The notes beneath the pieces are model-generated. The model was given only the letters and a program-made list of their open reading frames with translations, made no database searches and was not told where the DNA came from. A program made the translations under genes and the position numbers. Source: an uncultured Burkholderiales bacterium (GTDB lineage: Bacteria; Pseudomonadota; Gammaproteobacteria; Burkholderiales; Thiobacillaceae). Taken from it: a stretch of 64,000 bases of DNA. The stretch's first letter is position 1. Every line of letters starts with the position of its first letter. Shown piece by piece: positions 15,832-32,075 of the stretch. The stretch spans positions 19,541 through 83,540 of the forward strand of contig CALHRD010000012.1 in NCBI GenBank assembly GCA_938038385.1, in the 5' to 3' direction.

Positions 15832-15851
15832 GCTTTCAGCCTGGGTTGGAA

Positions 15852-15877
15852 AAGGGGCCGCAAGGCCCCTTTTTTTA
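15852..15877 (+). terminator. rho-independent terminator after the PEP-CTERM gene
   Basis: Stem AGGGGCC, loop GCAA, stem GGCCCCT, followed by a T7 run. Confidence 0.8.
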
Positions 15878-15967
15878 CGTCGGCTCGCGCTGCCGCTGCG
15901 GTGATTTGCAACGGTAGGTCAGGCCTCAGCCTGATGGGTTGGCTACGACGCATGCGGGTGTTGGGGT

Positions 15968-15991
15968 GTGTCGGGCTGAAGCCCGACCTAT
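15968..15991. repeat. REP-like hairpin, family 2
   Basis: GTGTCGGGCTGAAGCCCGACCTAT. The core is identical to the copy at 14508-14530. Degenerate CCGACCT direct repeats follow, up to about 16045. Confidence 0.75.
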
Positions 15992-16130
15992 GTTCCTACC
16001 TACATTCCGACCTACGGCCCGACCTTGGACCGGACGGGGCCGACCGATGAAGCGGGCACTGCCCTGTGGGCGGGCTTGCCTGTCGGCGGCGGCTGGGATA
16101 TACCTTGGCCCCATTCACCGGGCAGACACC

Positions 16131-16832: not shown

Positions 16833-16884
16833 ACGCTGGGGCGGCAAGCCCTAGCCGCCGGAAACGCGCCTGAGGCGCCGTCGA

Positions 16885-16909
16885 TGTCGGCAAGGGCTTG
16901 CCGACCTAC
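16885..16909. repeat. REP-like hairpin, family 2
   Basis: TGTCGGCAAGGGCTTGCCGACCTAC, in the convergent gap between the LbH acyltransferase and SRPBCC genes. Confidence 0.75.
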
Positions 16910-17403
16910 GCAACCCCCTCCACTCGTGCCTTCAACGCCGCGTTCATGCGTTCGAAGCCGACCAGCACGTTGCGCCTGAGCCACGGCGCCATCAGGGGTA
17001 CCAGCCAGCCGCTGAAGCGCTCGCTCTGGATCAGCCGCGAGCGGCCGCTTCCGAGCGGCTCGATGACGAAGCGGTGATCCCCGTCCATCAGGCCGGGCCG
17101 GCCCAGGTGTCCGAGCCAGCGCAGCTCGCGCGCGGGCTGCGCGCCGAGCACCTGCAAGACATAGGGGCCGCGTTTGAGACCGGGCCATGCGATCTCCACC
17201 TCGAGGCGGCTGCCGGCGTGGGCCGCGCCCGCGGCCCTGGGGATGCAGGGATTCCAATCGGCATAGGCGGGGAAATCGGTCAGAGCGGCCCAGATCCGCT
17301 CCGGTGCGGCGTCGATGTCGATCTGCGTGTGCAGTTCGAGACCACGCCACCCGGTGCGACGGGCGTACGAGGCGGGATGGGTGGGGTTGAGCAAAGCGGT
17401 CAT
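16906..17403 (-). CDS. SRPBCC (START/Bet v1-like) ligand-binding protein
   Basis: 165 aa. IDAAPERIWAALTDFPAYADWNP... is typical of the polyketide-cyclase/SRPBCC fold. Confidence 0.7.
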   Translation of the reverse strand: MTALLNPTHPASYARRTGWRGLELHTQIDIDAAPERIWAALTDFPAYADWNPCIPRAAGAAHAGSRLEVEIAWPGLKRGPYVLQVLGAQPARELRWLGHLGRPGLMDGDHRFVIEPLGSGRSRLIQSERFSGWLVPLMAPWLRRNVLVGFERMNAALKARVEGVA

Positions 17404-17487
17404 GTCAGTATGCGCCGGGCCGCCCCAAGTGTACTGACCACCCCCGCGGGGGGCGACGAACGCAGTGAGTCGGGGGGCCGTTTCATC

Positions 17488-19032
17488 CTAGCGTGGAGGG
17501 CGTTGCGATGCGAGATGATCCGCCACCCGCAAGGCGTTGGCGGCGATGGTGAGCGCCGGGTTGGTGCCGCCGCTGGTGGGGAAGAAGGCGGCGTCCACCA
17601 CCCACAGGTTGTCGAGGTCATGCGCGCGGTTGTAGCGGTCGAGCACGCTCGTCGCCGGGTCGTCGCCGAAGCGGCAGGTGCCGCAGGCGTGCGCCAGCAT
17701 GATGTTTTTTTCTGCCTGGCGCAGGGCGAGGAAGCGGTAGGGCCGCAGCGTGGCGCAAACCTGACGGCGGAAGACGTCGAGCCGCCTGCGGTCATCGGCA
17801 TGCAAATGGTATTCGACCGCCAGCGGCGGGCCGGGCAGGACCCGGTTGTCGGGATGGGGGAGATCCTCCAGGATGGCGGCAAGCAGGACGCCGCGCTCGA
17901 ACAGGCCATCCAGCAAGGGCCGCAGCAGCGGGCGCAGGGGTGCGATGAGGGGCGCAGCCCAGGGCGCCTTGGCGCGCAGCTCGCGGTCGAGGTCCTGCAG
18001 CAGCATGGCGGCCGGCGGCAGGGCGCCGAAGGCCTGCAGCGTGCCGAGCTTCTCACCGTCGCGCCGGTAGAGGTCGCTCAGGCCCAGCGCCTTGTGGTGC
18101 CGGTCGGTCTTTTCGTGCGTGAAGACCAGGTAGAGGTCGACCAGATGGCGCATGAGGTGGCGCCCCACGAGGCCGGAGCGGTTGGCCAGGCCGGCCGGCC
18201 AGTCGGCGCTGGCGGAGCGCAGCAACAGGGCGGGGGTTTGCAGCGCCCCGGCAGCGAGAATGATGTGCCGGGCGCGCAGGGTGAAGGTCGCGCCGGCCTG
18301 CCGGCAGAGGACGCCGGTGGCGCGTTGGGTGTCGGCCTCCAGGCGTAGCGCTTCGCATTCATCCAGCAGCGCGGCGCCGTGTTCGGCCAGCGCGGGCTCG
18401 AGGCAGACCCGGCTGGCGTCGTTCTTGCAGGCGCGCGGGCAGAGATAGCCCTGGCAGCAGGCGCAGCCGGGCAGGAATTCGCAGGCCTGCGGCAGTCGGT
18501 AGGGGTGCAGGCCTTCGCGCTGGAAGTGGGCGTGCAGTTCGGTCTGAGCCGGGCCTGGCGGCGGCGCCGGCGGCAGCCCCGGCGCCGGCGGGCGCAGGGG
18601 GTCGCGCTCACCGCGCACGACGTAGAGCGCCTCGGCTCGGTCGTAATACGGGGCGAGGTCTGCGTAGGTGATCGGCCAAGCGGCGAAATCCACCGGAAAG
18701 AAGCGCTCCATGGCCATGCCGTAGAGGGCGCTGGAGCCGCCGCTGCCACAACCCATGAGGGGCACGAAGGCATGCGCGCCGTCGCGCACGGGTTCCGCCA
18801 TGCGGCCGCCACGGCGCAGGCAGTCGGCCGGCGCCGCCGCGTCCGGACAGACGAGTTCGGGATAGTCGCCGCGCAGGCTGTCGCCGTGGCGAAAGGCAGC
18901 ACGCCCCTTTTCGAGGAACAGCACGCGCCAGCCGGCGCGCGCCAGGGCATGGCCCAGGGTGGCCCCGCCCACCCCGGTGCCGATCACCAGGGCATCCCAG
19001 TCCTGCGCGCGGATGGCCTCGAGGTCATGCAC
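17488..19032 (-). CDS. GMC-family FAD oxidoreductase
   Basis: N-terminal GxGxxG (DALVIGTGVGGATLGHALARAG...FLEKG). The C-terminal GMC region carries GTCRFG...VVD..FFPTSGGTNPALTIAANALR. It overlaps the GT gene by 8 nt. Confidence 0.85.
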   Translation of the reverse strand: MHDLEAIRAQDWDALVIGTGVGGATLGHALARAGWRVLFLEKGRAAFRHGDSLRGDYPELVCPDAAAPADCLRRGGRMAEPVRDGAHAFVPLMGCGSGGSSALYGMAMERFFPVDFAAWPITYADLAPYYDRAEALYVVRGERDPLRPPAPGLPPAPPPGPAQTELHAHFQREGLHPYRLPQACEFLPGCACCQGYLCPRACKNDASRVCLEPALAEHGAALLDECEALRLEADTQRATGVLCRQAGATFTLRARHIILAAGALQTPALLLRSASADWPAGLANRSGLVGRHLMRHLVDLYLVFTHEKTDRHHKALGLSDLYRRDGEKLGTLQAFGALPPAAMLLQDLDRELRAKAPWAAPLIAPLRPLLRPLLDGLFERGVLLAAILEDLPHPDNRVLPGPPLAVEYHLHADDRRRLDVFRRQVCATLRPYRFLALRQAEKNIMLAHACGTCRFGDDPATSVLDRYNRAHDLDNLWVVDAAFFPTSGGTNPALTIAANALRVADHLASQRPPR

Positions 19033-20239
19033 GTCCGGCCACCTCCTCGAGGATCGCGCTCAGGCGTTGCACCGGATCGTAGGCGGCGATGGCGCGCGCC
19101 ATCTCCCGCGCCCGCTGCCGCATCGCCGCGTCGTCGAGCAGCCGCTGCACGGCGACACGGATTTGCATCGCATCGAGACGGTCGGTGCGCAGGCGCAGGC
19201 CGACGCCGGCCTTTTCCACGTGATGCATGGACAGTTGCTGATCCATGTGCGCGGCAATGCCCAGGACCGGCTTGCCGGCGGCCAGGGCCTGATAGACACC
19301 CATACTGCCGCCGTTGCCGATCACCAGTTCGGCGCGCCGGCAGAGGGCCTCGCCGGGGGCATAGTCCAGCAGGCGCGCATTGGGCGGCGACGTGCCGGGC
19401 AGGTCGCGGCCGGCGCGCGTGGCCACTACGGTGACGGGCAGATCGGCGAGGGCTTCGAGCACCTTGGCCAGCACCGCCGGGTCGCCCGAGCTGCCGAGAG
19501 AGACGTAGATCAGGGGACGGTCGGCCGGCAGTTCATCCCACCAGGGCGGCAGGGGGACTGCCGGCGACCATGCGATGGGACCCAGGTAGCGGTGGGTGAC
19601 CGGGCGGCCAGGCGTGGGGATCAGTTCCTCGGCGTCGGCGTAGAGGGTGTGATCCGCTTCCGTATAGGGCCGCCGCCAGTCCCAACCCAGGGCCGCCAGG
19701 CCATGGTCCCGGCGCAGCCGGTTCAGCGGCCAGGAGTGCCAGGCGGCGGCCAGGGGCCACACCCGGTCGAACAGGGGCTGGGCGAGTGGCAGGCCGAGCC
19801 GGCGCGTGAGCGGCAGGTCGGGGACCGGGGTTGCGGCGTCGGCCCAGGGGCTCCAATAGGCGTTGTGGATGGCGAGGTATGGGATGCCTCGTAAGCGGGC
19901 GCTCACCGTCAGGGACAGGCGGTGATCTCCCACGACGGCCGCAGGCCGAACGGCGTCGAGCAGGGCGAGGTCCTCGCGCAGATAGGCGCGCAGGGTCTCC
20001 GTGTCGTACAGCCGGTGGCCCCGTGCGGCGGCACGCAGGAAGCGCTGCGTGGCCTGGGAGGAGATGGGATGCGCGGGGCAGGGCAGATCGGCGATGAGGC
20101 CGGCGTAACGCGGGTCGCAGGCGAAGACGACCGCGAAACGCTCCGGGTCGAGGCCCCGCGCCAGGGCGGCAGGGCGGGCCACATGCGCCAGGGTGACCGC
20201 GTCCGCCACGAACAGGATGCGGGGACGGGCGTCGCTCAC
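19025..20239 (-). CDS. GT1-family glycosyltransferase (UDP-glycosyltransferase/MGT type)
   Basis: About 400 aa with two Rossmann halves. The C-terminal donor-binding region is VIGNGGSMGVYQALAAGKPVLGIAAHMDQ, comparable to CrtX, RhlB and macrolide glycosyltransferases. Confidence 0.78.
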   Translation of the reverse strand: MSDARPRILFVADAVTLAHVARPAALARGLDPERFAVVFACDPRYAGLIADLPCPAHPISSQATQRFLRAAARGHRLYDTETLRAYLREDLALLDAVRPAAVVGDHRLSLTVSARLRGIPYLAIHNAYWSPWADAATPVPDLPLTRRLGLPLAQPLFDRVWPLAAAWHSWPLNRLRRDHGLAALGWDWRRPYTEADHTLYADAEELIPTPGRPVTHRYLGPIAWSPAVPLPPWWDELPADRPLIYVSLGSSGDPAVLAKVLEALADLPVTVVATRAGRDLPGTSPPNARLLDYAPGEALCRRAELVIGNGGSMGVYQALAAGKPVLGIAAHMDQQLSMHHVEKAGVGLRLRTDRLDAMQIRVAVQRLLDDAAMRQRAREMARAIAAYDPVQRLSAILEEVAGRA

Positions 20240-20281: not shown

Positions 20282-21067
20282 TCACTGCAGCCGCTTGAGG
20301 TATTCCTTGGTGAACACGCGGTCGGGCAGGTCTCTGAGCCGCATGTTGTCGTATTCCAGGATCGACTGCTCCCCACCGCGCAGTGCGTCCTGCATGACCA
20401 GCCGCGTCGGGCGGTGTTGCCCGGCCATGGGCTGATAGTTTTCATAGCTGCAGGTTTTCAGCAGCCGGTTCGAGAGCGAATAGAACTCGGCCTTGCGCGG
20501 CCGGTTGTTGCGCTTGTTCACCCACAGCAGCACACGGTGGTAGGTCACGCCGCGATCGACGGCGTTGAGCTCCAGGACGTGATGCTCCTCGCCGTCCAGA
20601 CGCTCCGTCCTGAGCAGCCGGGGGTTGTAGTCGCCGGTGAAGTTGGCGCGCGCCAGATCGCCGTTGGCGACCTGTCCCATGAGGCGCTGGGCCAGCCCGA
20701 TGCGGATGGGTTGCGCCACCTCCGGCATGAACATCCACAGATCGCGCCCCTTCATGAGCATGATCTGGCCCCGGTCGGACGCCGGTTCGAGTACCATTAC
20801 CACCGTGTTTTCGTTGCCTTTGGAGAGGATGCGATATTTCCTGCGCGTCTCGTCACCGTCCTGGGAGGTGGTGATGTCGACATCGACTTGGAAGCCCTGG
20901 TTTGGGAAGCGGATCTCGTCGGCGCGCTGCAGGATGCCGCGGGCCTGCTCGTCCGCTTCCGGCGCTTCCTGGGCGTGCGTGACGGCCAGGGGCATGAGCG
21001 CCGCGACCAGCATCAGCGCCGCGATGCGCAGGAATGAACGGGGTGGTGCAGACACAGCCATATCCAT
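20282..21067 (-). CDS. periplasmic LolA-like outer-membrane lipoprotein-sorting protein family
   Basis: Trimmed to the ATG giving MDMAVS, with a GGAGG RBS. It has a signal peptide without a lipobox. The body (ILQRADEIRF...YRILSKG...MLMKGRDLWMFMP...VLLWVNKRNNRPRKAEFYS) matches my recollection of the LolA_like family. Confidence 0.7.
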   Translation of the reverse strand: MDMAVSAPPRSFLRIAALMLVAALMPLAVTHAQEAPEADEQARGILQRADEIRFPNQGFQVDVDITTSQDGDETRRKYRILSKGNENTVVMVLEPASDRGQIMLMKGRDLWMFMPEVAQPIRIGLAQRLMGQVANGDLARANFTGDYNPRLLRTERLDGEEHHVLELNAVDRGVTYHRVLLWVNKRNNRPRKAEFYSLSNRLLKTCSYENYQPMAGQHRPTRLVMQDALRGGEQSILEYDNMRLRDLPDRVFTKEYLKRLQ

Positions 21068-21103
21068 CAAGCCTCCAAAAACCCGCCACGGTACATCACG
21101 CTC

Positions 21104-21862
21104 ATGAGCCTCGTTCGCGTGCAAGGCGTCACCAAGGAATACCTGCTGGGTGAGCAGGTCGTGGTCGCGCTCGACGATATCACACTCTCCATCGAGGAAG
21201 GCGTGTTCATGGCCATCGCCGGTCCCTCCGGCAGCGGCAAGACCACCTTGCTCAACATCATCGGTTGCATCGACCTGCCCACACGGGGCCAAGTGTACAT
21301 CGACGGTCGGGAGGTCACCGGCCGCTCGGCAGACGACCTCGCCGACCTGCGTGCCCGTACCATCGGCTTCATCTTCCAGACCTTTAACCTCTTCCCGGTC
21401 CTGACCGCGGCGGAGAACGTCGAGTACCCGCTGCTGCAGCTGCCGGAGATCGGACGCGAGGAGCGGCGGCGGCGGGTGAAGAAGTTTCTGCGGGTGGTCG
21501 GTCTGGAGAAACAGGCCGACCACCGGCCCAACCAGTTGAGCGGGGGACAACGCCAGCGCGTGGCCATCGCCCGGGCACTGGCGATCAACCCGCGCATCGT
21601 GCTGGCCGACGAACCCACGGCCAACCTGGACAGCAGGACGGGGTCGGACATCCTCGCGCTGATGAAGCAGATCAACCGCGAGTACGGCACCACCTTCATC
21701 TTCTCCACCCATGACCGGCGGGTGATGGCCATGGCCGATCGTCTCGTGCGTATCGAGGATGGCCATGTGTCGATGCTGGCGGTCAGGGCGAACGACCAAT
21801 GGAAGTCGGTCCGCACGCGCGCCGACGGCAGGATCAACAATACCGGTAAGGAGGCAGCGTGA
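21104..21862 (+). CDS. ABC transporter ATP-binding protein, LolD/MacB type
   Basis: Walker A GPSGSGKT, signature LSGGQRQR and Walker B VLADEP. Its start codon is only 36 bp from the divergent LolA-like gene. Confidence 0.93.
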   Translation: MSLVRVQGVTKEYLLGEQVVVALDDITLSIEEGVFMAIAGPSGSGKTTLLNIIGCIDLPTRGQVYIDGREVTGRSADDLADLRARTIGFIFQTFNLFPVLTAAENVEYPLLQLPEIGREERRRRVKKFLRVVGLEKQADHRPNQLSGGQRQRVAIARALAINPRIVLADEPTANLDSRTGSDILALMKQINREYGTTFIFSTHDRRVMAMADRLVRIEDGHVSMLAVRANDQWKSVRTRADGRINNTGKEAA

Positions 21863-23439
21863 AGCGTATGGACAAGACCCTGATCGGCTTGACCCTGGGG
21901 CTGGCGGCATGCCTGCCGGCCGTGGTGGTCGCCGGCCCGACGCCGAAGACCGTGTCTGCGGCGAAGACGAGTCAAGCGACATTTGCGCCGGCAGACAGGT
22001 TGAACGTGGCGGCCAAGGAAGCGGACCTGCCACTGAGCCGGGATGCCCTGTTCGGTCTGGATGAGCCCGAGCGGCCGGAGGCCGTCAAGACTCCGGCACG
22101 CCAGGGCGATGCGGCCCTGCCCGGTTCGCTGAAGGATTTGTTCGAGATCGAGGAGGTGCGCCAGCCCGCCGCCGCGCCGCCGTCGCGGTTGGATACGCCT
22201 GCCGCGAGCCAAGCCGCCACACCGGCTCCCGTAGCGGAGGCACCCGCTTTGCGCGGCTATCTGCAGACCGAGCTGGCCTACACCTATGGTGAGCCGGCGC
22301 ACTGGTCCAAGACCCTGGCGCGCCTGCATCTCGGCACCGGCGGACGCCATGCCGGCGTGCAGTGGAAAATGAGCGCCCGGCTGGATTACAACCCGGTGTA
22401 CGACCTGACCGACCACTACCCCAAGGCGGTGCGCGACGATGACCGTCTGCGGCTGCTGCTGCATGAGACCTATGTCGATTTCACCACCGGCGGCTGGGAG
22501 TGGCGCGTGGGCCGGCAGAACGTCGTCTGGGGCGAGATGGTGGGGCTGTTCTTCGCCGACGTGGTCTCGGCCAAGGACCAGCGCGAGTTCGTCCTGCCCG
22601 ACTTCCAGATCCAGCGCATCCCGCAGTGGGCGGTGCGGGCCGAGCGTTTCGGAGCGGACGACTTTCACACCGAGCTGCTCTGGGTCCCCTATCCCAGCTA
22701 TGACCTGATCGGCAAGCCAGGCGGCGATTTCTATCCTTATCCGCCGCTGCTGCCGGGGCTCACCCCGGTCATCGAGGGCGAGCGCAAGCCGGCGCGCACG
22801 CTGAAGAACACCAACTATGGCCTGCGCATGGGCAAGTTGATCAATGGCTGGGACCTGTCGGCCTTCTATTACAACAGCCTGGACGCCGCGGCGAGCTTCT
22901 CGCGCACGCTCGCTCCCGCCACCCAGACCTACCGGCCGCAGCATACGCGCATCTGGCAGGCGGGCGGCACGCTGGGCAAGGACCTGGGCCCGTTCGTGCT
23001 GAAGGCGGAGCTGATCTACACGGATGGTCGCAGATACAACACCGTGGATCCAGCCGACGCGGACGGCCTGGTCGTGCAGGACACCCTGGATTGGGTGCTG
23101 GGCGCCGACTTCCAACCCGGCCCCGACACCCGTCTGAACACCCAGCTTTTCCAGCGCGTCTATTTCGACCATGACCCGGGCATCATCCCCGCGCGGCGCG
23201 AAAGCGGGGCATCGCTGCTGGTCAATCACAAATTCAACGCGCGCTGGGAGGGGGAGGCCCTGCTCATCGCCAGCCTCAACCGCAGCGACTGGATGCTGCG
23301 GCCCAAGCTCACCTGGAGGCCGCAGACCAACTGGCGCATGACGATGGGTGTGGATGTCTTCCACGGGCCGGCAACGGGCTTTTTCGGGCGCTACGACAAT
23401 CGCGACCGCGGCTACGTCGAGCTGCGCCGCGATTTCTGA
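21859..23439 (+). CDS. outer-membrane beta-barrel protein (DUF1302 / alginate-export-like) with a Pro/Ala-rich N-terminal linker
   Basis: GTGA overlap with the ATPase stop. Lipobox-like signal (LGLAAC), then a low-complexity linker of roughly 120 aa. WRVGRQNVVWGE is a DUF1302-like motif, and the terminal ...VELRRDF ends in Phe, as OM barrels do. Confidence 0.6.
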   Translation: MKRMDKTLIGLTLGLAACLPAVVVAGPTPKTVSAAKTSQATFAPADRLNVAAKEADLPLSRDALFGLDEPERPEAVKTPARQGDAALPGSLKDLFEIEEVRQPAAAPPSRLDTPAASQAATPAPVAEAPALRGYLQTELAYTYGEPAHWSKTLARLHLGTGGRHAGVQWKMSARLDYNPVYDLTDHYPKAVRDDDRLRLLLHETYVDFTTGGWEWRVGRQNVVWGEMVGLFFADVVSAKDQREFVLPDFQIQRIPQWAVRAERFGADDFHTELLWVPYPSYDLIGKPGGDFYPYPPLLPGLTPVIEGERKPARTLKNTNYGLRMGKLINGWDLSAFYYNSLDAAASFSRTLAPATQTYRPQHTRIWQAGGTLGKDLGPFVLKAELIYTDGRRYNTVDPADADGLVVQDTLDWVLGADFQPGPDTRLNTQLFQRVYFDHDPGIIPARRESGASLLVNHKFNARWEGEALLIASLNRSDWMLRPKLTWRPQTNWRMTMGVDVFHGPATGFFGRYDNRDRGYVELRRDF

Positions 23440-23484
23440 GCTCGTGGCCCGTTTGCAGGCGCAGCCCACCGCTCGACGCGAATT

Positions 23485-24696
23485 TCAGATGCTTTGCCGC
23501 AAGGCCTCGACCACGGGTATGCGGCGTATCCTGAGCGCCGGCAGCAGGGCGGCGCCGACCGTGGCAAGGAGGCCGATGGCGAAGGCGCTCGCCACCACCG
23601 CCGGCGTCAGGGTGATGCGTGCCGTGTAGGGCAGGTCGGAGTTGGGCGGCGGCGGCATGGGGATGCCCACCTGCGAGATCGCCATGGCCAAAACGATGCC
23701 CAACGACGTGCCGATGACGGCCCCCAGAACGCCGATGATCAGGTTCTCCGCCAGGATCAGGGCGAACACCCGGCCGGAGCGGTTGCCCAGGGCCATCATG
23801 GTGCCGAATTCGCCCACCCGCTCGTAAATACTCATGTTCACGCTGTTGGCCACGGACAGCAGCACCATGACCAGGATGATCAGGCGTAGCACACCGAACT
23901 GGGCGTCGTACATCTCGACGGTCTGGGTATAGAACTCGTTGAGTTCGAGCCAGGTGCTGATCTCCGCCCCCGCGAGTTCGGGTTTCTCCCGCAAGCTGGC
24001 TGCCACCCTGGCGGTGTTGCCGGTTTGGTCCAGCAGAACGACCAGCGTGTTGACGCCCGTCGTGGTCGATAGCTCCTGGGCGGCGGCCAGCGGGATGCGG
24101 ATGGCGCGGGCGTCATAATCCTTGGAGAAGGTCTGGAAGACGCCGACCACCTGGAATTCCATGCTGTTGAGCGCGCCTTCGGGGGTGTTGAGCACCAGTG
24201 TCGCCCAGTCGCCGGGTGCGAGCTTGAGGGCCTGGGCCAGGCCTTGGCCGAGCATGATGCCGTATTGATCGCCGGCCTCGAGCGCGCGGCCGGCGGTGAT
24301 GACCAGACTGGTGCCGAGGGTGCGCTCACCCTCCGGCTCCACGCCTTCGCCGATCACGGGTAGGTCCGAGCGGCCGTTGTTGAGCAGTCCGGTCAGGTAG
24401 AGCCGGCCCATGACGGCACGCACGCCGGGCGCGCCGGCGACCGCCTCGCGCAGCGGCCGCGGGTCGTCGATGAGGTATTTTTCCGGGCTGCGCGTGCCGC
24501 GCTCGAAATAGCCCTGGCGTGCGATCTGCAGGTGGCCGGACTGGGAGTGGATCAAAAGTTCTGCAAGTTGCCTGAAGATGTCGTGCACGAAGCCGCCGCT
24601 GAGGTTGAGCCCCACCGTGCCGATGACGATCACCATGAGCGTCATGGTGGTACGCAGCCTGTGGCGAAAGACGTTGCGCAGGGCCAGCTTCCACAT
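23485..24696 (-). CDS. ABC transporter permease, FtsX/LolC-E type
   Basis: Trimmed to the ATG giving MWKLALRNVFRHRLRT. One transmembrane helix, a large periplasmic domain, then three transmembrane helices forming the FtsX domain. Confidence 0.85.
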   Translation of the reverse strand: MWKLALRNVFRHRLRTTMTLMVIVIGTVGLNLSGGFVHDIFRQLAELLIHSQSGHLQIARQGYFERGTRSPEKYLIDDPRPLREAVAGAPGVRAVMGRLYLTGLLNNGRSDLPVIGEGVEPEGERTLGTSLVITAGRALEAGDQYGIMLGQGLAQALKLAPGDWATLVLNTPEGALNSMEFQVVGVFQTFSKDYDARAIRIPLAAAQELSTTTGVNTLVVLLDQTGNTARVAASLREKPELAGAEISTWLELNEFYTQTVEMYDAQFGVLRLIILVMVLLSVANSVNMSIYERVGEFGTMMALGNRSGRVFALILAENLIIGVLGAVIGTSLGIVLAMAISQVGIPMPPPPNSDLPYTARITLTPAVVASAFAIGLLATVGAALLPALRIRRIPVVEALRQSI

Positions 24697-24704
24697 GGTC
24701 GGGC

Positions 24705-25949
24705 TCAACGGTTGCGGCGCAAGGCGTCGACGATGACCAGTCTGGACGCGCGCCAGGCCGGGTAGAGGCTGGCGAGCCAGGTGGTGACGACGGCGAGCAG
24801 CAGGGCCTCGACGATGATCATGGGGGTGATGATGATGGCGGCGGTAAAGCCGCGCGACATGCCCGGTGAGGGCGGCATGGGGATGCCGACGTAGGAGATG
24901 AGTTCGGCCAACCCATAGCCGATGACGATGCCGACCAAGCCACCGAGCGCGCCCAGGGCCGTCCCCTCGACCAGGAACTGGCCCAGTATGCGCCGGCGGC
25001 GGACGCCCAGGGCCATGGCCGTGCCGATCTCGACGGTGCGTTCCATGACGTTCATGGTCATGGTGTTGGTGATGCCGATCAGGATGATGGTCGCGATGAT
25101 CAGCTTGACCACGTCGATCTGGCGGCTCAGGAGCTGCACCGTCTTGTTGTAGAAATCCGCCAGCTGGTGCCAGGGGGTGATCTCGAAACCGGCCAAGGCG
25201 GAGTCGCCCTCGAGTCTGGCGTAGACGGCATCGGTTTGGCCGGTATCGTGCAGGGACACCACCCACACATGGGCGCCGGCCACGCGCAGGAGTTTGCGCG
25301 CCAGGTCGATGGGCACCCAGAGCATGGTGTCGTCGTAGGCCTTCATGGAGGTGGAGGCAAGACCCTGGATGCGGGCCTCGACGGCGTTGATGCCGCCGCT
25401 GGCGGTGTTCGCCAGGAGCACCACCCGATCATCGACGCCGACGCCGAGATTGGCCGCCAGGCCGGTGCCGATCAGGATGCCTTGCGCGTCGCCGGGGCGC
25501 AGGCCCGCGCCCTCCGGGATGATCAGGTAGAGCAGGGAGGGGTCGCGCGCCGCATCGACGCCGATGGCGAGGAAGGTCAGCGTGCTGTCGCCATGGCTGA
25601 TGAGCCCGTTGAAGTCGATGCGCGGCGTGATCGCGCGGATGGCCGGATCGCGTGTCAGTTCGCTCAACCTCGGCACGGAGGCGGGCAGCAGATAGGCATA
25701 GGGATCGGACCGACCATCCCGGTGATAGCCGGGCTTGACCACCTGGATGTGCCCGATCTGGGTGACCGCGGTCCCTTCCCGGCTGGCCCAGAAGATCCAT
25801 TCGATGAAGCCGCCCGCGAGCATCATGGCGATGACGCCGAAGGCGATGGCCAGGATGGCCACGCCGCTACGCCTGGGCTGGCGCAGGATGTTGCGCAGGG
25901 CAATGCGCAGGAGGGTGGCGTAGGTGGTCATACCGGCAGCCATCGCCAT
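24705..25949 (-). CDS. ABC transporter permease, FtsX/LolC-E type (paralogue)
   Basis: LRIALRNILRQPRRS at the N-terminus and the same topology as the neighbouring permease, 8 bp upstream of it. Confidence 0.85.
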   Translation of the reverse strand: MAMAAGMTTYATLLRIALRNILRQPRRSGVAILAIAFGVIAMMLAGGFIEWIFWASREGTAVTQIGHIQVVKPGYHRDGRSDPYAYLLPASVPRLSELTRDPAIRAITPRIDFNGLISHGDSTLTFLAIGVDAARDPSLLYLIIPEGAGLRPGDAQGILIGTGLAANLGVGVDDRVVLLANTASGGINAVEARIQGLASTSMKAYDDTMLWVPIDLARKLLRVAGAHVWVVSLHDTGQTDAVYARLEGDSALAGFEITPWHQLADFYNKTVQLLSRQIDVVKLIIATIILIGITNTMTMNVMERTVEIGTAMALGVRRRRILGQFLVEGTALGALGGLVGIVIGYGLAELISYVGIPMPPSPGMSRGFTAAIIITPMIIVEALLLAVVTTWLASLYPAWRASRLVIVDALRRNR

Positions 25950-26003: not shown

Positions 26004-28790
26004 TCACAATTTGCCCAGCAGGGCCTTCGCTTCCTGCAGCTCGGGGAAATCACGCTTGCCTTGCACGAGCCGGGTGAGTTCCTGCCGGGCCTTGTCGCGC
26101 TGTCCGCTTTGTGCGAGGGCGACGGCGTAATGGTAGCGGATGGTGTCGGCTTCCGGCACCTTGTCGAGGGCCTTGCGCAGCAGTTCCAGCCCCTTGGCCG
26201 CCTGATCCTGTCCAACCAGGATCCAGCCCAGGGTGTCGAGCACGGTGGCGGATTCGGGCGCGAGTTCCAGGGCGCGTTGCGCCGTGGCCAGGGCCCTGCT
26301 GTCGCCCGTGCGCTGGTAAAGCACCGCCAGATTGTTGAGCATGATGGGGTTGTCGGGGGTGTCGCGCAGCAACTGTTCGTACTGCGCGATGGCGGCATGG
26401 TCTTCGCCCCTGAGCATTTTGTATTCGGCGAAATAGGCCTTGGCCGCCTGATCCTGGGGATGTGTGCCGAGCCAGCGGGTGAGTTCCTGGTCGGCCTCGG
26501 CGACTTTGCCGGTGGCCAACAGGGCACGATGCAGCATGATCAGGGTACCGGCCTGCGCGCCGCGCTCGATGGCCTGTCGGTAGGCGGGGATGGCCAGCGC
26601 CGGCCTGCCCTGGGCCATGTGTAGGGCGCCCTCACGATCGTAGCCGATGTGCGAATCGGGAAAGCGGGCCTGGATCTGGCGGATGCGCGCCAAAGCCGCG
26701 TCGGCCTTGTTTTCGCTTACATCCAGCTGGATGAGGGTGTCGAGTGCCTGCACATGGCCGCGCTCCGCGGCCAGGGCCTTCTCCAGGTTGGCTCTGGCCT
26801 CGCGTGTGCGCTTTGCCGCCAATTGCGCCAGGGCCAGCCGGTAGTGCAGCTCCGGAGTCCCGGGCGCAAGGCGCAGGGCCTTTTCCAGCGAGGCGATACT
26901 GGCGGTCGCATCCCCCGAGCTGAGCTGTACCTGCGCCAGCAGGGCCATGGCCTCGGCGCTGTCCGGGGCGGTCTGCGCCAGGGCATTGGCGATTTCGAGG
27001 GCCTCCTTGTAACGTTTGTTGGCCAAGTGATGTTGCACCAGACGCGCACGCGGGGCCAGCGCTTTGGCATCAGCCCGTGCTGCCTTCTCGAGCCATTGCA
27101 CGGATTCCTTCTCGCGGCCTTCGCCGGCAGCCAGATCGGCCAGCGCCAGCATGGCCCGGAGGTTGTTCTTGTCCTGATCGAGGATGGATTCGAAGCGTTT
27201 GCGGGCGGCAGCCGGCTTCTTGTCCTCCAGGTCCAGCCTGGCCAGGCTGAAGGCGGCGGGGAAGAAATCGGGTTTCAGGGCCAGCGCCTGCTCCAGCGTT
27301 TCCCTGGCCGCCTTGCGGTCCTGTTTGCCCAGGTGGGCGGCCGCGCGCAGTTGAAAGACCACCGGATTGTCCGGAAACACTTTGGCCAACGCGGCGGTCT
27401 GCGCCAGGGCCTGATCGAACTCCTTGCGCTGCAGGTGCAGGAGGGTCAGCGCGAGATCGGCTCGGCCCTGGGTGCGCCCGGCGCGGGCGGCCTCCTGGAG
27501 CTCGGTCATGGCCCGGCCCACCTCACCTTTGGCCAGTCGACCGCTCACCCGCAAGTCCAACAGACGGGCGCTGTCCGGCCGGAGAGCCGTCGCCCGGTCC
27601 AAATAGGCCATGGCCTTGTCGTACTCGCGCTTGCGCATGTAGAGTTCGCCCGCCAGCGCAAGGATCTGGGCATCGTCGGGACGCTTTTTCAGCAGAGGCA
27701 GGAGGATTTCCTCGGCACCCTTGACGTCGTTCGTCCTCAGTCTGCCGGAGGCGACCAGCCGGGCTGCATCGGTGTTGTCGGGTAATTGTGCCCAGACCCG
27801 CTCCGCACTGCGCCGGCTTTGTTCGAAGTTGCCAAGACCTTCACCGATCATGGCCTGCACCAACAGCGACGGCAGGTGGTCCGGGCTGAGCTTGAGGACC
27901 TGCAGGATCGCATTGTTGGCCTCGTTCAGATTGCCCCGCGTGTATTCGAACACGGCACGCGCATACTTGACCAACGGCGATGCCGGTGCGGCCGCTTCTG
28001 CCGCCTTGAGCGCTGCATCGGCCTCTTTCAGCGCCTGCTCGGTCCCCTTCGCGCCACCCTGCTTCATGAGCAGTTTCGCGGTGGACAGGTGGGCCAGATA
28101 CTCTCCGGGATGGGCTGCCGTGATCTGCCGGTATACAGCCAGGGCGGCGGCATCCTTGCCTTCTTCCGTCAACAGGTGAGCCTTGAAATAAAGGGCGTCG
28201 CGCAAGGCGTCATCCCTGGCCAGCGCCGCATCGACCAGGGCCATGGCCAGATCGGGTCGCCCGGTCTCGCGCGCCATGACGGCCTTGGCGAACAAAACCT
28301 CGGGATGCTGAGGATCGCTTCTCTCGCCCTCGGCCAGATCCTTTTGGGCGGCCTCCCTGTTACCGAGTGCTAGGTGGGAACGCGCCCGATAGGCATGAAC
28401 GGTCGCCAGCGCAGCCATGCCCAAGGTGGGACCGGGGCGGACCTCCTCGATGAGTCGGGCATGCGCCCCCGTCATCAGCAGAAGGCGTGCGTGCAGGGGG
28501 GTCAGTCGATCGGCCGGCGCGCCCAGTTCGCGTGCCTTGGTGAATTCCTTGTCCGCCGAGTCATAGTCCCCCGTCTCCAGATAGGCCTGGCCGAGGAGCA
28601 TGCGGGCCTCTGCGCTGTCCGGTTGCTTCTGGATCGCCGCTTTCAGTTCGACGATGGCGGTCTTGTGGTCTTGCTTGCCGATCGAGGTCCTGGCGGACTC
28701 GACCAGTTCGGTGGGGCTTTTATCGCCGCAGCCCGTTGCACCAACGAGTACCAAGGCTAGCAAGGCGGTCCACATTTTTCTGCTCGACAT
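26004..28790 (-). CDS. prsT: PEP-CTERM system TPR-repeat lipoprotein PrsT
   Basis: Trimmed to the ATG giving MSSRKMWTALLALVLVGATGC (lipoprotein signal). About 928 aa of continuous TPR repeats. It sits next to prsR and prsK. Confidence 0.8.
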   Translation of the reverse strand: MSSRKMWTALLALVLVGATGCGDKSPTELVESARTSIGKQDHKTAIVELKAAIQKQPDSAEARMLLGQAYLETGDYDSADKEFTKARELGAPADRLTPLHARLLLMTGAHARLIEEVRPGPTLGMAALATVHAYRARSHLALGNREAAQKDLAEGERSDPQHPEVLFAKAVMARETGRPDLAMALVDAALARDDALRDALYFKAHLLTEEGKDAAALAVYRQITAAHPGEYLAHLSTAKLLMKQGGAKGTEQALKEADAALKAAEAAAPASPLVKYARAVFEYTRGNLNEANNAILQVLKLSPDHLPSLLVQAMIGEGLGNFEQSRRSAERVWAQLPDNTDAARLVASGRLRTNDVKGAEEILLPLLKKRPDDAQILALAGELYMRKREYDKAMAYLDRATALRPDSARLLDLRVSGRLAKGEVGRAMTELQEAARAGRTQGRADLALTLLHLQRKEFDQALAQTAALAKVFPDNPVVFQLRAAAHLGKQDRKAARETLEQALALKPDFFPAAFSLARLDLEDKKPAAARKRFESILDQDKNNLRAMLALADLAAGEGREKESVQWLEKAARADAKALAPRARLVQHHLANKRYKEALEIANALAQTAPDSAEAMALLAQVQLSSGDATASIASLEKALRLAPGTPELHYRLALAQLAAKRTREARANLEKALAAERGHVQALDTLIQLDVSENKADAALARIRQIQARFPDSHIGYDREGALHMAQGRPALAIPAYRQAIERGAQAGTLIMLHRALLATGKVAEADQELTRWLGTHPQDQAAKAYFAEYKMLRGEDHAAIAQYEQLLRDTPDNPIMLNNLAVLYQRTGDSRALATAQRALELAPESATVLDTLGWILVGQDQAAKGLELLRKALDKVPEADTIRYHYAVALAQSGQRDKARQELTRLVQGKRDFPELQEAKALLGKL

Positions 28791-28872
28791 CGATGTGGGC
28801 TCCTCTGGGGTAGTTGTGCGCGTCAAGTTGTGCAAAATATGTTGTTGCCGCTTCGGGCTAAGCCCTGCGCGG

Positions 28873-28982
28873 CCCCTCTCTCCCTGGGTGAGAGGGGCCG
28901 GCAGAGAGGACCGGAGGGGTTGGGAGAGAGGGAACGGACAAGGCGACAATCATGCTTCGGGGTGCGTCGCCATATCCGTTTT
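28873..28982. repeat. interspersed intergenic repeat, family 1 (copy B)
   Basis: CCCCTCTCTCCCTGGGTGAGAGGGGCCGGCAGAGAGGACCGGAGGGGTTGGGAGAGAGGGAACGGACAAGGCGACAATCATGCTTCGGGGTGCGTCGCCATATCCGTT, lying between the two prsT genes. Confidence 0.8.
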
Positions 28983-29162
28983 AGGTCCCTCGCAGCAAGA
29001 GGTATGCGTGCGCTCGATCCGCGTCTCACGGAGTCCATGTCCGGCTGGCATCTGCAGGGGGGCGGGTTGCCGTGCGTCCGCCGCGGGTCGGCAGCAATCA
29101 TGTTCCGAGCTACTTATTCAAGCATAGATAAGGGGCAGTTGACAGACCGATCGACGTCCGAG

Positions 29163-32075
29163 CTACCGAGGGCGCTGCCTGAGCGTGTTGAAAAACTGGA
29201 TGGCAGCCTGGCGGTTGGCGAAATCGCGCCCGCTGTTGAGCAGGCGTTCCAGTTCCGTCAGGGCGCGCGGGGTGTCCCCCGACTTGGCCAGGGCGACGGC
29301 CAGGTGCCAGTGGATGTCGGGTGCATCCGGGGCCTGTTTGTGTGCCTTCTCCAGCAGGCTGCGGCCGCGTTGCACCTGGCCCTGGTTGACCAGGATCCAG
29401 CCCAGGGTGTCGAGTGTGGAGGGATGCTCGGGTGCCAGGGCGTAGGCCGCTTCGGCCTGCGGCAGGGCGCGCGGGTCTTTGAGTTCGCCATAGATCCAGG
29501 CGAGGTTGTTGGCAGCCACCAGATCCCTGGCATTTGCCTTGAGCAGTTGTTCGTAATGCGGCTGCGCCTCGCGCAGGTTACCGCTCTTGAGCAGTCCATC
29601 GGCGAGGGCGTGACGGGCGACGGCATCGTTGGGGCGCTCGGCGAGCCACTGGCGCAGGAAGGCATCCGCCTGCCTGTGCTGCCCCGCAGTGACCAGTGTG
29701 CGGTAGGCGGTGGAGGCCAGCATACCGTTGCCCGCGATGCGGGCCGCCTTGGCATAGGCCTCGCCCGCGGCTGCGAAATGCTTGCCGTGGGCCAGGATGT
29801 CGGCCTCGGCGACGAAACCCACCGGTGATTTCGGTTCCTTTTGCTGCAGCGTCCTGGCCAGGCGCAGGCCCTCTTCCGGCCGCCCTGCCTCGGCCAGCGC
29901 GACCGCCTTGGCCGACTGGACGTCCACGGCATTCGGGGCGATGGCCAGTGCCCGATCCAGGGACTGCAGGGCGGCCTGGGTATCACCCATCATGCGCTGG
30001 ACCAGCCCGAGCTTGTAGTGCCCCTTGGGGTCGGCGGGCGCGGCCTTGACCCATTGCTGGAAGCTGACCAGGGCGCCGTTGCGGTCGTTCTGCATGAGCT
30101 GGGCGGTACCCATGGCGTCATGCAGGCGGACATGACCGCTGGCGTCGAGCCCTGCCTTGGCCTCCACCTGCGCCTTGGCAGGATCCTGTCGCTGCAGCCA
30201 GTACAGGGCCAACAACTCGTAGGGCGCGGGGTCCTTGGGGTTGGCCTGCTTGGCGCGTGTCAGATAATCCACGTAGGCCTTGTCGTCTTTCTGGGTGGCG
30301 GCCAGCCCGGCGAGTGCGACCAATGCCCGACTGTTGCGGGGATCCCTGGCCAGGACCGATTCGAAGCGGCCGCGCGCCGCCTTGGGGTCGTTGGCCTTGA
30401 GATCGAGGCGTGCGAGGTCGGCGGCCGCGGGGAGATAGGTGGCATCCCGTTTGAGGGCCTCGGCGAAGCTGGCGCGGGCACCGGCGCCGTCCCGTTCGGC
30501 CTGGCGTACGAGGCCGAGCAGGTGATAGCCGAGGGGGTCCTGCGGTCGCTCGCGGATGAGGCGTTCCGCCACGGCCATGGCCTCGCTGTGGCGGCCGGCC
30601 CTGAGGTGGGTCTGGACCAGGATCGCATCGGGCCGCCCGGTGGCAGTGTCCAGCTCTGCGGCGCGGTTCAGGGCGTCGATGGCCCCGGCGGTGTCGCCGC
30701 TGCCCATGCGGCTGCGGGCCAGTTCGACGAGCAGCGCCGGGTTGTCGGGGGCGAGGCGGCTGGCCTGCTCGAGGTGTTGCCGTGCGGCGGCGTAATCCCC
30801 TCTGCGCAGCGCGATGTCGCCCTGCAAGGACGCGGTGAGCAGGTCGTGGTCGCCGCGCAGTCCGGCGATCAGACGCTGGGCGTCATCCAGCTGGCCGCTG
30901 CTCACCATGGCCGCAGCCATCAGCTTGCGGGCATAGGCATGGTCCGGCATGCGCTCCAGGACCTTGCCCAGATGGCCGATGGCCGTCTGCCGGTTGCCCA
31001 GGGCGAACTCCACCGCACCGGCGAGCAGGTGGGCGGGCAGGAGGTCCGGTGCCCGTTTCAGGACCTGCTGGAGCTTGGCCTTCGCCTCGGCGGGGCGGTT
31101 ACGCCGGAAGTCGATGACGGCGCCCAGATAGCGCGCCATGGGGTGATCCGGGGCCAGCTTGGCGACCTGGGCCAGTTCCGCCTCGGCGCGGTCCAGATCG
31201 TTGGCCTCCAGGTGCAGCAGGCTCACGGCGACGTGGGCGGGGACGTTACCGGGGTCGAGTTCGAACACCTTGCGGTAGGCGGCGAGTGCCTGCTGTTTGT
31301 AGTGCTGTGCCTGCGGCCCGGAAGCATCGCCCGCGTCGCCGCCCGTGGCGGCCAAGTCGCTCTCGCTGCGGCCTGGTGAGCGACTCGACAGGCGCAGCAG
31401 GTCGCCCTTCATCATCCACAGGTCGGCCCGCTTGCCGTCGGCGGCGATGGCGCGATCGAGCAGGGTCATGGCCGTGTCCCGCTGACCGGCCATGACCGCG
31501 ATCTGGGCGCGGGTGACCAGGGTCTCGGGGTGATCGGGGCGCAAAGCGTCGGCCTCCCTCAGGCTTTGCTCCGCGGCGCCTTGGTCGCCGAGCATCAGCT
31601 GGGCGCGTGCGCGCAGGGCGAGGAGCGGGGCGGCCAGGTCCGGACTGGCGCCCTCGGGCACGGGGATCTCGTCCAGCACGCGCTTGGGCTGCCTGAGGCC
31701 GATGAGGGCCTGGGCCAAGAGGGTAGGCAGGTCATCCGCGCGATGGCCGCCGTCGCGCGCCCGCATGAGCTCTTTCTCCGCCGAGGCGTAGTCCTGACTG
31801 GCAAGGTGGAGCTTGCCCAGCTCATAGCGGACCCCGGCGTTGTCGGGCGCCAGTTGCAGGGCGTTCTTGAGTTCGATGACCGCCGCCTGCCGGTCGCCAC
31901 GATCCATGTGCGACTGGGCCGCCTCGATGTGGTCCTCGGGACTTTTCTGGCTGAGGACGTGATAGGCGCCGCCGGCGATGCCGATGCTGGCGACGACGCC
32001 GGCGATGAGGAGCAGACGGGATCGATCGAGTCGCAGCTTGCCGCGTCTCGAACGTCTACGGGAGTGGGTGGCCAT
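29163..32075 (-). CDS. PrsT-like TPR-repeat protein, N-terminally membrane-anchored paralogue
   Basis: 970 aa. A basic N-terminus and one transmembrane helix (RLLLIAGVVASIGIAGGAY), then TPR repeats colinear with the neighbouring PrsT (AAVIELKNALQLAPDN versus TAIVELKAAIQKQPDS). Confidence 0.75.
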   Translation of the reverse strand: MATHSRRRSRRGKLRLDRSRLLLIAGVVASIGIAGGAYHVLSQKSPEDHIEAAQSHMDRGDRQAAVIELKNALQLAPDNAGVRYELGKLHLASQDYASAEKELMRARDGGHRADDLPTLLAQALIGLRQPKRVLDEIPVPEGASPDLAAPLLALRARAQLMLGDQGAAEQSLREADALRPDHPETLVTRAQIAVMAGQRDTAMTLLDRAIAADGKRADLWMMKGDLLRLSSRSPGRSESDLAATGGDAGDASGPQAQHYKQQALAAYRKVFELDPGNVPAHVAVSLLHLEANDLDRAEAELAQVAKLAPDHPMARYLGAVIDFRRNRPAEAKAKLQQVLKRAPDLLPAHLLAGAVEFALGNRQTAIGHLGKVLERMPDHAYARKLMAAAMVSSGQLDDAQRLIAGLRGDHDLLTASLQGDIALRRGDYAAARQHLEQASRLAPDNPALLVELARSRMGSGDTAGAIDALNRAAELDTATGRPDAILVQTHLRAGRHSEAMAVAERLIRERPQDPLGYHLLGLVRQAERDGAGARASFAEALKRDATYLPAAADLARLDLKANDPKAARGRFESVLARDPRNSRALVALAGLAATQKDDKAYVDYLTRAKQANPKDPAPYELLALYWLQRQDPAKAQVEAKAGLDASGHVRLHDAMGTAQLMQNDRNGALVSFQQWVKAAPADPKGHYKLGLVQRMMGDTQAALQSLDRALAIAPNAVDVQSAKAVALAEAGRPEEGLRLARTLQQKEPKSPVGFVAEADILAHGKHFAAAGEAYAKAARIAGNGMLASTAYRTLVTAGQHRQADAFLRQWLAERPNDAVARHALADGLLKSGNLREAQPHYEQLLKANARDLVAANNLAWIYGELKDPRALPQAEAAYALAPEHPSTLDTLGWILVNQGQVQRGRSLLEKAHKQAPDAPDIHWHLAVALAKSGDTPRALTELERLLNSGRDFANRQAAIQFFNTLRQRPR

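Follow-up and report, generated by a model that had tools for sequence, protein, structure and literature searches.

Which cargo does a five-gene, Lol-like module carry across the cell envelope, and to which membrane? The question is raised by a locus in an uncultured Burkholderiales bacterium of the Thiobacillaceae (contig CALHRD010000012.1, assembly GCA_938038385.1). We analyzed a stretch of 64,000 nucleotides of this contig, hereafter called the window. The module occupies positions 20282-25949 and encodes a LolA-like periplasmic carrier, an ATP-binding cassette (ABC) ATPase, two LolC/E-like permeases (A and B), and an outer-membrane β-barrel. Our analysis indicated that the module is probably a route from the inner to the outer membrane for a hydrophobic or acylated cargo. 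From its neighborhood, we propose a Lol-type route that would carry a lipid belonging to the PEP-CTERM floc system, with an N-acyl amino acid lipid as the likeliest cargo; we judge the chances of this proposal to be about even.

Genes were called from third-position G+C, followed by a family search for each gene; at about 67% G+C, bare open reading frames (ORFs) in the window were little informative. The five genes, the 36-bp gap between the divergent carrier and ATPase genes, the GTGA overlap, and the permease genes converging on the barrel gene were all found as the earlier note on this DNA had described them (Table 1). Gene calls in a public collection gave identical products of 261, 252, 526, and 414 aa, indicating that an independent caller picked the same starts. 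The TGA stop of the ATPase gene (21860-21862) overlaps the GTG start of the barrel gene (21859-21861), and 45 bp separate the barrel gene from the permease genes. A GGAGG sits 4 nt before the ATG of the carrier gene. Neither a sigma-70-like nor a sigma-54-like consensus was found in the 36-bp gap, and scans for sigma-70 promoters and terminators gave nothing above shuffled sequences.

Table 1. Features of the module and its surroundings in the window
Feature	Position	Strand	Basis
LolA-like periplasmic carrier, 261 aa	20282-21067	-	PF17131, E=6e-51
Divergent intergenic gap between LolA-like gene and ATPase gene, 36 bp between start codons	21068-21103	.	Sequence
ABC ATPase, LolD/DevA/MacB nucleotide-binding domain type, 252 aa	21104-21862	+	PF00005
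Barrel protein, 526 aa, whole gene	21859-23439	+	PF06980 (DUF1302), 29.9 bits (gathering score 23.2)
Barrel signal peptide	21859-21936	+	GTG start overlaps ATPase TGA
Disordered Ala/Pro-rich tether, predicted periplasmic	21937-22242	+	pLDDT <50, two motif copies
Tether motif copies, LPLSRDALF and LPGSLKDLF	22027-22053; 22117-22143	+	Motif search
Tether peptides, LPLSRDALFGLDE
DUF1302-type outer-membrane β-barrel, C-terminal Phe	22243-23439	+	PF06980, AlphaFold
Permease B, type VII ABC (FtsX/MacB_PCD), LolE-like, 403 aa	23485-24696	-	Pfam, PDB match
Permease A, type VII ABC, LolC-like apparently without Hook, 414 aa	24705-25949	-	Pfam, PDB match, AlphaFold
PrsT, tetratricopeptide repeat (TPR) lipoprotein of the PEP-CTERM system (associated gene)	26004-28949	-	TIGR02917, 758 bits
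Second PrsT, PrsR, PrsK, and EpsB (XrtA-system sugar transferase; associated genes)	29163-37102	-	NCBIfam
FeeM-family N-acyl amino acid synthase	6621-7406	+	PF21926, E=7e-46; FeeM structure 2G0B, E=1e-11
Lineage-specific lipid-tailoring block between synthase and module	7666-20239	.	Pfam/NCBIfam
PepA-like PEP-CTERM gene	14875-15831	+	NF033554, 79.7 bits (cutoff 80)
Sigma-54 promoter of PepA-like gene, TGGCACGGGCGTTGCT	14802-14817	+	Promoter scan
Anti-hemB small RNA	4486-4575	-	Rfam RF02837, 72.9 bits (gathering score 49.5)

Relatives of the barrel are encoded in at least 534 of 185,579 species genomes, a pattern-based lower bound. The 80 loci with the best matches to the barrel, one genome per species, were compared with the window by tblastn of the window proteins, and neighbors were counted within 10 kb. 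All come from Betaproteobacteria, namely Thiobacillus, Sulfuriferula, Hydrogenophilales, Accumulibacter, Propionivibrio, Azonexus, Methyloversatilis, and Sulfuritalea. A subset of 48 loci had at least 8 kb on either side of the module and is called fully flanked below. All 48 contained the triad of carrier (-), ATPase (+), and barrel (+) genes, and 34 contained the permease pair within 10 kb of it. Translational coupling of ATPase and barrel is a trait of the family: among 74 related loci in which the junction was measured, the stop and start codons overlapped by 4 nt in 33 and were 1 nt apart in 12 (45 of 74 combined). The invariant triad, the frequent permease pair, and the coupled junctions indicated that the five genes are a real conserved unit, in an arrangement far above chance. 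The co-occurrence that the earlier note had asked about was thus observed.

The carrier matched PF17131 over its full length (173 bits, model positions 1-184 of 184; gathering score 30). This family is labeled LolA_like and was renamed 'TP_0789-like' in a newer Pfam release. The carrier has a type I signal peptide, cleaved between ...LAVTHA and QE, and no cysteine. It is the orthologue of Nitrosomonas europaea NE2245, the protein of PDB entry 3BUU (E=2e-95), which was deposited as an 'uncharacterized LolA superfamily protein'; 4555 homologues were found at E<=1e-20. The canonical LolA models of Pfam and NCBIfam did not match the carrier. Its sole NCBIfam hit was LolA1_Flavo, with 23.5 bits against a cutoff of 100, and the match to 4Z48 was weak (E=1e-6). 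One paper superposed 3BUU as 'N. europaea LolA'. As the orthologue here belongs to an accessory module and matches no canonical LolA model, 3BUU is probably the wrong protein to stand for the housekeeping LolA of N. europaea. A literature search returned no functional study of NE2245, PF17131, or TP0789.

The ATPase contains complete Walker A, LSGGQ signature, Walker B, and H-switch motifs. Its top NCBIfam hit was DevA with 223 bits, and the MacB nucleotide-binding domain and LolD followed with 219.5 and 219.3 bits. All three scores were under the cutoffs; for the LolD equivalog TIGR02211, the threshold is 307.75 bits.

Both permeases contain FtsX (PF02687) and MacB_PCD (PF12704) domains and are 36% identical to each other. 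Like the DUF1302 and PF17131 assignments, the MacB periplasmic core assignment suggested earlier was confirmed by Pfam matches. The best PDB match of permease A was LolC (62 bits; LolE, 34 bits), whereas that of permease B was LolE (72.6 bits; LolC, 40.8 bits). MacB and YtrF scored lower for both. Against the LolC/E equivalog TIGR02212 (cutoff 362 bits), permease B scored 89.2 and permease A 86.0 bits, and the LolC- and LolE-specific models, whose cutoffs are 439-540, gave 50-63 bits. The AlphaFold model of permease A had a predicted local distance difference test (pLDDT) score of 82 and showed the type VII ABC topology, with four long helices and a periplasmic domain of 190 residues. In a Foldseek search, this model matched LolC/E, MacB, and Spr0694-0695 with E values of 1e-24 to 1e-16. 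The top hits were LolE and LolC chains of LolCDE complexes, with template modeling (TM) scores of 0.62-0.71; MacB, YtrF, HrtB, and YbbP ranked behind them. The FtsX C-terminal domain, the MacB-type periplasmic core, and the four-helix topology by which type VII ABC systems are recognized were all present. A GIPMPPxPGMSRGF loop between the last two helices is conserved in both permeases. Both have a 6-residue gap opposite residues 172-177 (FTPMGR) of E. coli LolC, although at an alignment identity of 20-23% this gap is indicative only. In LolC, these residues belong to the Hook, a β-hairpin that recruits LolA. With one permease nearest LolC, the other nearest LolE, and all scores far under the cutoffs, the module is a paralogous, non-housekeeping Lol-like system, as previously suggested.

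Some comparison loci without the cognate permease pair within 10 kb (L040, L041, L049, L053, L057-L059) have two genes downstream of the barrel, one for a zinc alcohol dehydrogenase-like protein and one for a second, distinct ABC ATPase. The second ATPase shows 39% identity (30% in L059). L057 and L058 also have a gene for an FtsX-type permease (26% identity), which separates the alcohol dehydrogenase-like gene from the second ATPase gene.

The match of the barrel protein to PF06980 covers only model positions 106-405 of 541, so membership is weak at the sequence level; 118 of 120 barrel homologues are precomputed as PF06980. The AlphaFold model showed a confident β-barrel for residues ~130-526 (pLDDT mostly 80-95), whereas residues 17-125 were disordered (pLDDT <50). 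The C-terminus reads ...RRDF. In the literature, DUF1302 barrels are treated as a non-prototypical class with 16-18 strands. A family profile search of PDB sequences found no solved relative, and Foldseek returned only general porins (TM score about 0.55). A specific structural relative was therefore rejected. The family contains at least 1368 close homologues, and in a library clustered at 50% identity, barrel relatives formed 268 clusters at E<=1e-30 and 2197 clusters at E<=1e-3.

The earlier note described a lipobox-like signal, a Pro/Ala-rich linker, and a DUF1302 barrel ending in Phe. The linker (23% Ala, 14% Pro), the barrel, and the terminal Phe held. The lipobox did not hold as a feature of the family: the LAAC18 site was present only in the window barrel and its nearest relative, whereas other members have AxA-type signals. 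As the cysteine is not conserved, lipoprotein status as a family trait was ruled out.

The linker, which we call the tether, is more than Pro/Ala filler and carries a conserved, repeated S-R/K-D/E-x-L-F-G motif. The strict motif occurred in one to three copies in 43 of 64 orthologues, every time N-terminal to the barrel, and did not occur once in 382,207 residues of neighboring ORFs. By eye, most of the remaining 21 orthologues have a core variant, [SG][RK][DE]xLF[GD], with acidic residues after it. The motif is missing from distant barrel relatives (below about 45% identity), whose N-terminal regions are different, so it was rejected as a definer of the wider DUF1302 family. The N-termini of the distant relatives P0424-P0528 appeared by eye to be OmpA-like peptidoglycan-binding, AMIN/LysM-like, or coiled-coil regions.

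The module is consistently linked in genomes to accessory genes of the PEP-CTERM/XrtA system. In the window, prsT lies 54 bp upstream of the gene for permease A on the same strand, and the order epsB-prsK-prsR-prsT-prsT-permA-permB is collinear. The scores of these neighbors were 700 bits for the second PrsT (TIGR02917), 736 for PrsR (TIGR02915), 793 for PrsK (TIGR02916), and 529 for EpsB (TIGR03013). The order PrsT-PermA-PermB is kept in many loci. PEP-CTERM neighbor genes in the other loci were found by a regular-expression scan. Of the 48 fully flanked loci, 35 had at least one marker (prsT/K/R, epsB, TIGR03694, or a PEP-CTERM gene) no more than 10 kb away, a check on neighborhoods that supported the suggested link to prsT, prsK, and prsR. 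When synthases were added to the markers, the number rose to 37. PEP-CTERM protein genes were found at most 10 kb away in 35 of 80 loci and in 28 of the 48 fully flanked ones. Many of them adjoin the triad, and with 103-171 bits several of these adjacent genes are bona fide PepA.

N-acyl amino acid synthases stood beside the module in 35 of 80 loci and in 30 of 48 fully flanked ones. They are of the FeeM type, of TIGR03694, or of a FeeM-family variant with 435 aa that immediately follows the barrel. FeeM-type and TIGR03694 synthases have no detectable sequence similarity, and the neighboring synthases occupy different positions in the loci. That different enzymes with the same activity are kept in different positions argues for repeated retention and a functional linkage of synthase and module, rather than inherited synteny. 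The synthase of the window is FeeM-type, and its assignment to TIGR03694 was rejected, since it has no detectable similarity to that family. TIGR03694-family enzymes make long-chain N-acyl amides. A knockout in Methylomonas, reported with TIGR03694-type synthases, led to the loss of a polysaccharide band.

Near the synthase there is often a ThiF-like adenylyltransferase (PRK08223, 347 bits) together with an Acg-type nitroreductase. In the 989-aa model PRK14852 all three are parts of one fusion, which suggests that they may form a three-enzyme pathway. The trio of FeeM-type synthase, adenylyltransferase, and nitroreductase is found repeatedly beside the module; the regions noted are 6621-7406 (+) of the window, which is the synthase, 486-1367 of L006, and 1896-3080 of L022. 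Craig, Cherry and Brady (2011) are reported to have tied N-acyl amino acid synthases of the TIGR03694 type to the exosortase system.

Between the synthase and the module, the window contains a tailoring block. It encodes a WbuX-like amidotransferase, a fatty acyl-AMP ligase, a thioester reductase, a flavin adenine dinucleotide (FAD) oxidase, a hexapeptide acyltransferase, an SRPBCC protein, a GMC oxidoreductase, and a GT1 glycosyltransferase. The earlier note considered such flanking biosynthetic genes as the source of the cargo. Individual genes of the block recurred in only about 2-7 of 80 loci, and the block or part of it adjoins the module in L001, L003, L024, L031, L069, and L072. Because so few loci have them, the flanking glycosyltransferase and oxidoreductase genes are lineage-specific and not conserved partners of the module. 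The conserved partners are the synthases and the PepA-type genes, and the earlier idea was not upheld.

These observations on folds, domains, gene geometry, conservation, and linkage can be joined in the following mechanism, in which the direction of transport, the order of hand-off, the role of the tether, and the identity of the cargo are what we infer. Permeases A (LolC-like) and B (LolE-like) would form a heterodimeric type VII ABC permease with two copies of the LolD/DevA-like ATPase. By mechanotransmission, this complex would pull an acyl-bearing cargo from the periplasmic leaflet of the inner membrane and hand it to the soluble LolA-fold carrier, the NE2245/3BUU orthologue. The carrier would shuttle the cargo across the periplasm, and the DUF1302 barrel would take it over at the outer membrane. 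As the permeases seem to have no Hook and the barrel tether has a conserved hydrophobic-acidic motif, we propose the tether as the docking element: its ~100 disordered residues probably capture the carrier or the TPR lipoprotein PrsT, replacing the LolC Hook. The module would serve as an accessory of the PEP-CTERM/PepA/exopolysaccharide flocculation system. In this bacterium, the cargo may be tailored further by the ligase, reductase, oxidase, and glycosyltransferase that the inserted block encodes. A lipid fits best as cargo, because variable small-molecule enzymes surround the module. The location beside PEP-CTERM and N-acyl amino acid genes suggests the cargo without proving it.

Several points weigh against a lipid route of the PEP-CTERM system. 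The evidence on the cargo consists entirely of gene neighborhood. The loci compared are related, all being betaproteobacterial, and their counts are not independent. The permeases were not within 10 kb in 14 of the 48 fully flanked loci. In 11 of 48, including Sulfuriferula isolates, the module lies among housekeeping genes with no synthase or marker within 10 kb. As the barrel family was found in so few genomes, even taking the count as a lower bound, the module cannot belong to PEP-CTERM sorting in general. At the module genes, no sigma-54/PrsR-type promoter was found in strict or relaxed scans. The apparent loss of the Hook in both permeases, as read from the alignment, leaves the hand-off to the carrier with no modeled interface. 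No flippase was identified for an N-acyl amino acid made in the cytoplasm, and type VII ABC systems act on the periplasmic leaflet. PepA-type genes neighbor the module about as often as synthases do, which makes a protein cargo possible.

For a protein cargo, the module would extract C-terminally lipid-anchored proteins to the outer membrane or surface, the cargo being a PepA-type protein cleaved by exosortase and joined to a lipid. The lipid might be the N-acyl amino acid product, and PrsT and the barrel might act like a split Slam translocon. This reading would account jointly for all three conserved neighbors. It also agrees with the frequent PEP-CTERM genes beside the triad, some of them true PepA, with the collinearity of prsT and the permeases, and with the handling of lipoproteins by the nearest structural relatives of the permeases. 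In Aquincola, PepA, prsT, prsK, and epsB are required for floc formation, and PepA has several processed or modified forms. However, the reading needs unproven chemistry, namely lipid attachment by a bacterial exosortase, and no xrtA was found in the window. The module is missing from most lineages bearing the PEP-CTERM system, the variable small-molecule tailoring genes beside it point to a lipid product, and the match of PrsT to the Slam TPR model was one of about 30 generic TPR hits. We consider a protein cargo rather unlikely. An extended form would be a second Lol pathway for exosortase products. XrtA would cleave PepA-type proteins and attach them to an amine-bearing N-acyl amino acid lipid from the neighboring synthase, the ABC complex would extract them, the carrier would ferry them, and the barrel would flip them to the surface, while the tether would recruit PrsT or the carrier in a Slam-like manner. 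If true, it would explain the roles of the synthases, PrsT, and the module as well as the PEP-CTERM surface route, yet we regard it as doubtful.

A glycolipid or other lipid made independently of the synthase by the flanking GT1, GMC, SRPBCC, acyltransferase, ligase, and reductase genes is an improbable cargo. In the window, as in its nearest relatives (L001, L003, and L031), these genes directly adjoin the LolA-like gene, and the top ATPase hit, DevA, belongs to the heterocyst glycolipid exporter. But the module is invariant, whereas the block is in few loci; other lineages hold ThiF-like and nitroreductase genes or a lone synthase at the same position, and even in the window the FeeM-type synthase still bounds the block. 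Efflux or uptake of exogenous or toxic hydrophobic compounds, as in DUF1302/DUF1329 clusters with a resistance-nodulation-division (RND) pump or in MacB-type resistance pumps, would suit the MacB-type homology. AmeAB (DUF1302 plus a LolA-superfamily protein) is induced on monoterpenes, AmeB is needed for growth there, and PP_0765/0766 mutants are unfit on fatty esters. No conserved catabolic genes were found near the module, where the conserved neighbors are biosynthetic or regulatory. It has neither a membrane-fusion protein nor a TolC-type partner, and type VII ABC systems are not importers, making this reading quite improbable. The module could also be an FtsEX-like mechanotransducer without transport, in which the ATPase switches the LolA-like protein or PrsT to regulate exopolysaccharide or PrsK signaling. 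Type VII ABC systems do include the non-transporting FtsEX, and the module adjoins prsK/R and, in Accumulibacter, genes of an HDOD kinase and GGDEF/EAL proteins. Such a switch is very improbable, since the LolA fold is a lipid carrier, the coupled outer-membrane barrel would have no role, and the nearest relatives of the permeases are LolC/E, not FtsX. The Lol system is universal in Proteobacteria. The best solved-structure matches to LolC and LolE and the presence of a LolA-fold protein might suggest that the module is the housekeeping Lol system, but this is scarcely credible. Its TIGR02212 scores of 86-89 bits fall far short of 362, LolD reached 219 against 308, and no canonical LolA was hit. 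The apparent lack of a Hook, the missing LolB, and the narrow distribution of the barrel also led us to reject this identity.

Compared with known systems, the module is an uncharacterised variant of the Lol pathway and of clusters combining DUF1302 and LolA-superfamily proteins, not a new category. As in E. coli LolCDE-LolA-LolB, it has a heterodimeric type VII permease with subunits closest to LolC and LolE, an ATPase resembling LolD, and a soluble carrier with the LolA fold in the periplasm, and it is predicted to draw acylated cargo out of the inner membrane. The differences are that all its components score far under the family cutoffs, its carrier belongs to PF17131 and not to the LolA family, and it seems to be without the LolC Hook. 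Its outer-membrane partner would be a tethered DUF1302 barrel instead of the lipoprotein LolB, as the earlier note proposed, and no LolB-like gene was found in the module. The coupling of ATPase and barrel, the position of the permeases behind prsT, and the restricted phylogenetic range are also unlike E. coli Lol.

AmeABCD of Castellaniella defragrans, Sama_1588-1591, and PP_0765/0766 likewise combine a DUF1302 barrel, a periplasmic LolA-superfamily protein, and an inner-membrane pump. Clusters of DUF1302, DUF1329, BNR-propeller, and RND genes are cofit in several bacteria and were proposed to export hydrophobic or envelope components by an uncharacterised mechanism. There, the pump is RND, whereas in the module it is a type VII ABC; the partner is DUF1329 (about 450 aa) instead of PF17131 (261 aa); and the context is catabolic or pleiotropic, whereas here it is PEP-CTERM and N-acyl amino acid synthase. 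No DUF1329 (PF07044), COG4447 BNR propeller, or RND pump was found in the module or its flanks. Among the relatives of the module barrel that were compared, the tether motif marks close orthologues and not distant ones.

A Borrelia lp38 cluster (BBJ23-BBJ29), described in silico in 2026, also consists of a MacB-like type VII ABC, an ATPase, a LolA-like protein, and an outer-membrane barrel. As in the module, its barrel was proposed as acceptor in the place of LolB, and its cargo is unassigned. Unlike the module, it has an Omp85/BamA-like barrel, a homodimeric permease, and extra chaperone genes, and it is plasmid-borne in a spirochaete with no PEP-CTERM link. The amphiphile exporters DevBCA-HgdD and MacAB-TolC share FtsX-type permeases with the module, and its ATPase is about equally near DevA, LolD, and the MacB nucleotide-binding domain. 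A difference is that the module has a soluble carrier and a barrel, not a continuous channel. No HlyD-type membrane-fusion adaptor or TolC-type factor was found among the five proteins or their neighbors.

The PEP-CTERM/exosortase system itself flanks the module with its prsT, prsK, prsR, epsB, and PepA-type genes and the TIGR03694/FeeM synthases, although the module is present in only part of the lineages having that system. The five module genes are not listed as PEP-CTERM/exosortase components in the literature examined, the gene maps of Craig, Cherry and Brady 2011 lying outside it, and a literature search found no paper that mentions both exosortase and LolA. The statement in the earlier note that no characterised system has this composition agrees with the literature searched, in which the DUF1302/DUF1329/RND clusters and the Borrelia cluster are two close analogues.

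The module is widespread in environmentally important Betaproteobacteria, and the PEP-CTERM system underlies floc formation in activated sludge. How PEP-CTERM proteins and matrix reach the surface, and what the exosortase-linked synthases and PrsT do, have been standing questions since 2006-2011. A conserved route that is driven by ATP and combines a LolA-type carrier with a barrel in the outer membrane, encoded between these genes, would be a concrete, testable missing step for this system. The module would be an ABC-driven counterpart of the uncharacterised DUF1302/DUF1329/RND clusters and a Lol-like example with no LolB and apparently no Hook, in which a disordered tether with a short repeated motif may dock. 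It also places 3BUU, an orphan crystal structure that has been used in the literature as a housekeeping LolA, in a functional context. Cultured and tractable carriers of the module, including N. europaea and Sulfuriferula isolates, make experiments feasible.

Other features of the loci concern regulation and neighboring genes. The PepA-like gene in the window follows a 690-bp non-coding region (14187-14874). A TTTACA at about 14698 lies 104 nt upstream of its sigma-54 promoter, and the two elements fit the PrsR-type cis element of Haft et al. 2006. The motif was found only at this gene, and PrsR/sigma-54 control of the module was rejected. The third-position G+C of the PepA-like gene is below that of its neighbors, and the gene was missed by the composition-based gene call. 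In Accumulibacter-type loci (L040, L043, L044, L046, L049, L050, L052, L053, L055, L057-L059, L066, L073, and L079), whose upstream genes were assigned domains by eye from their sequences, a PAS-GGDEF-EAL response regulator lies directly upstream of the LolA-like or TIGR03694 gene. An HDOD-domain histidine kinase accompanies it in all of them but L073. There are hints here of control by cyclic di-GMP in these loci.

The two full-length PrsT paralogues of the window are in tandem at 26004-32075 (-), and several related loci also have two copies. Within the tailoring block, the GMC oxidoreductase and SRPBCC (Polyketide_cyc2) proteins are encoded by separate ORFs 93 bp apart (16906-19032, -); in Hydrogenophilales bacterium 28-61-23, they are fused into one protein of 714 aa (L082:12019-14163). 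The anti-hemB small RNA, the sole Rfam match in the window, lies just upstream of, and antisense to, the start region of hemB (4698-5702). Positions 38022-57456 contain ordinary core genes, namely pbp1A and pilMNOPQ, followed by the dcw genes lpxC, ftsZ, ftsA, ftsQ, ddl, murB, murC, murG, ftsW, and murD.

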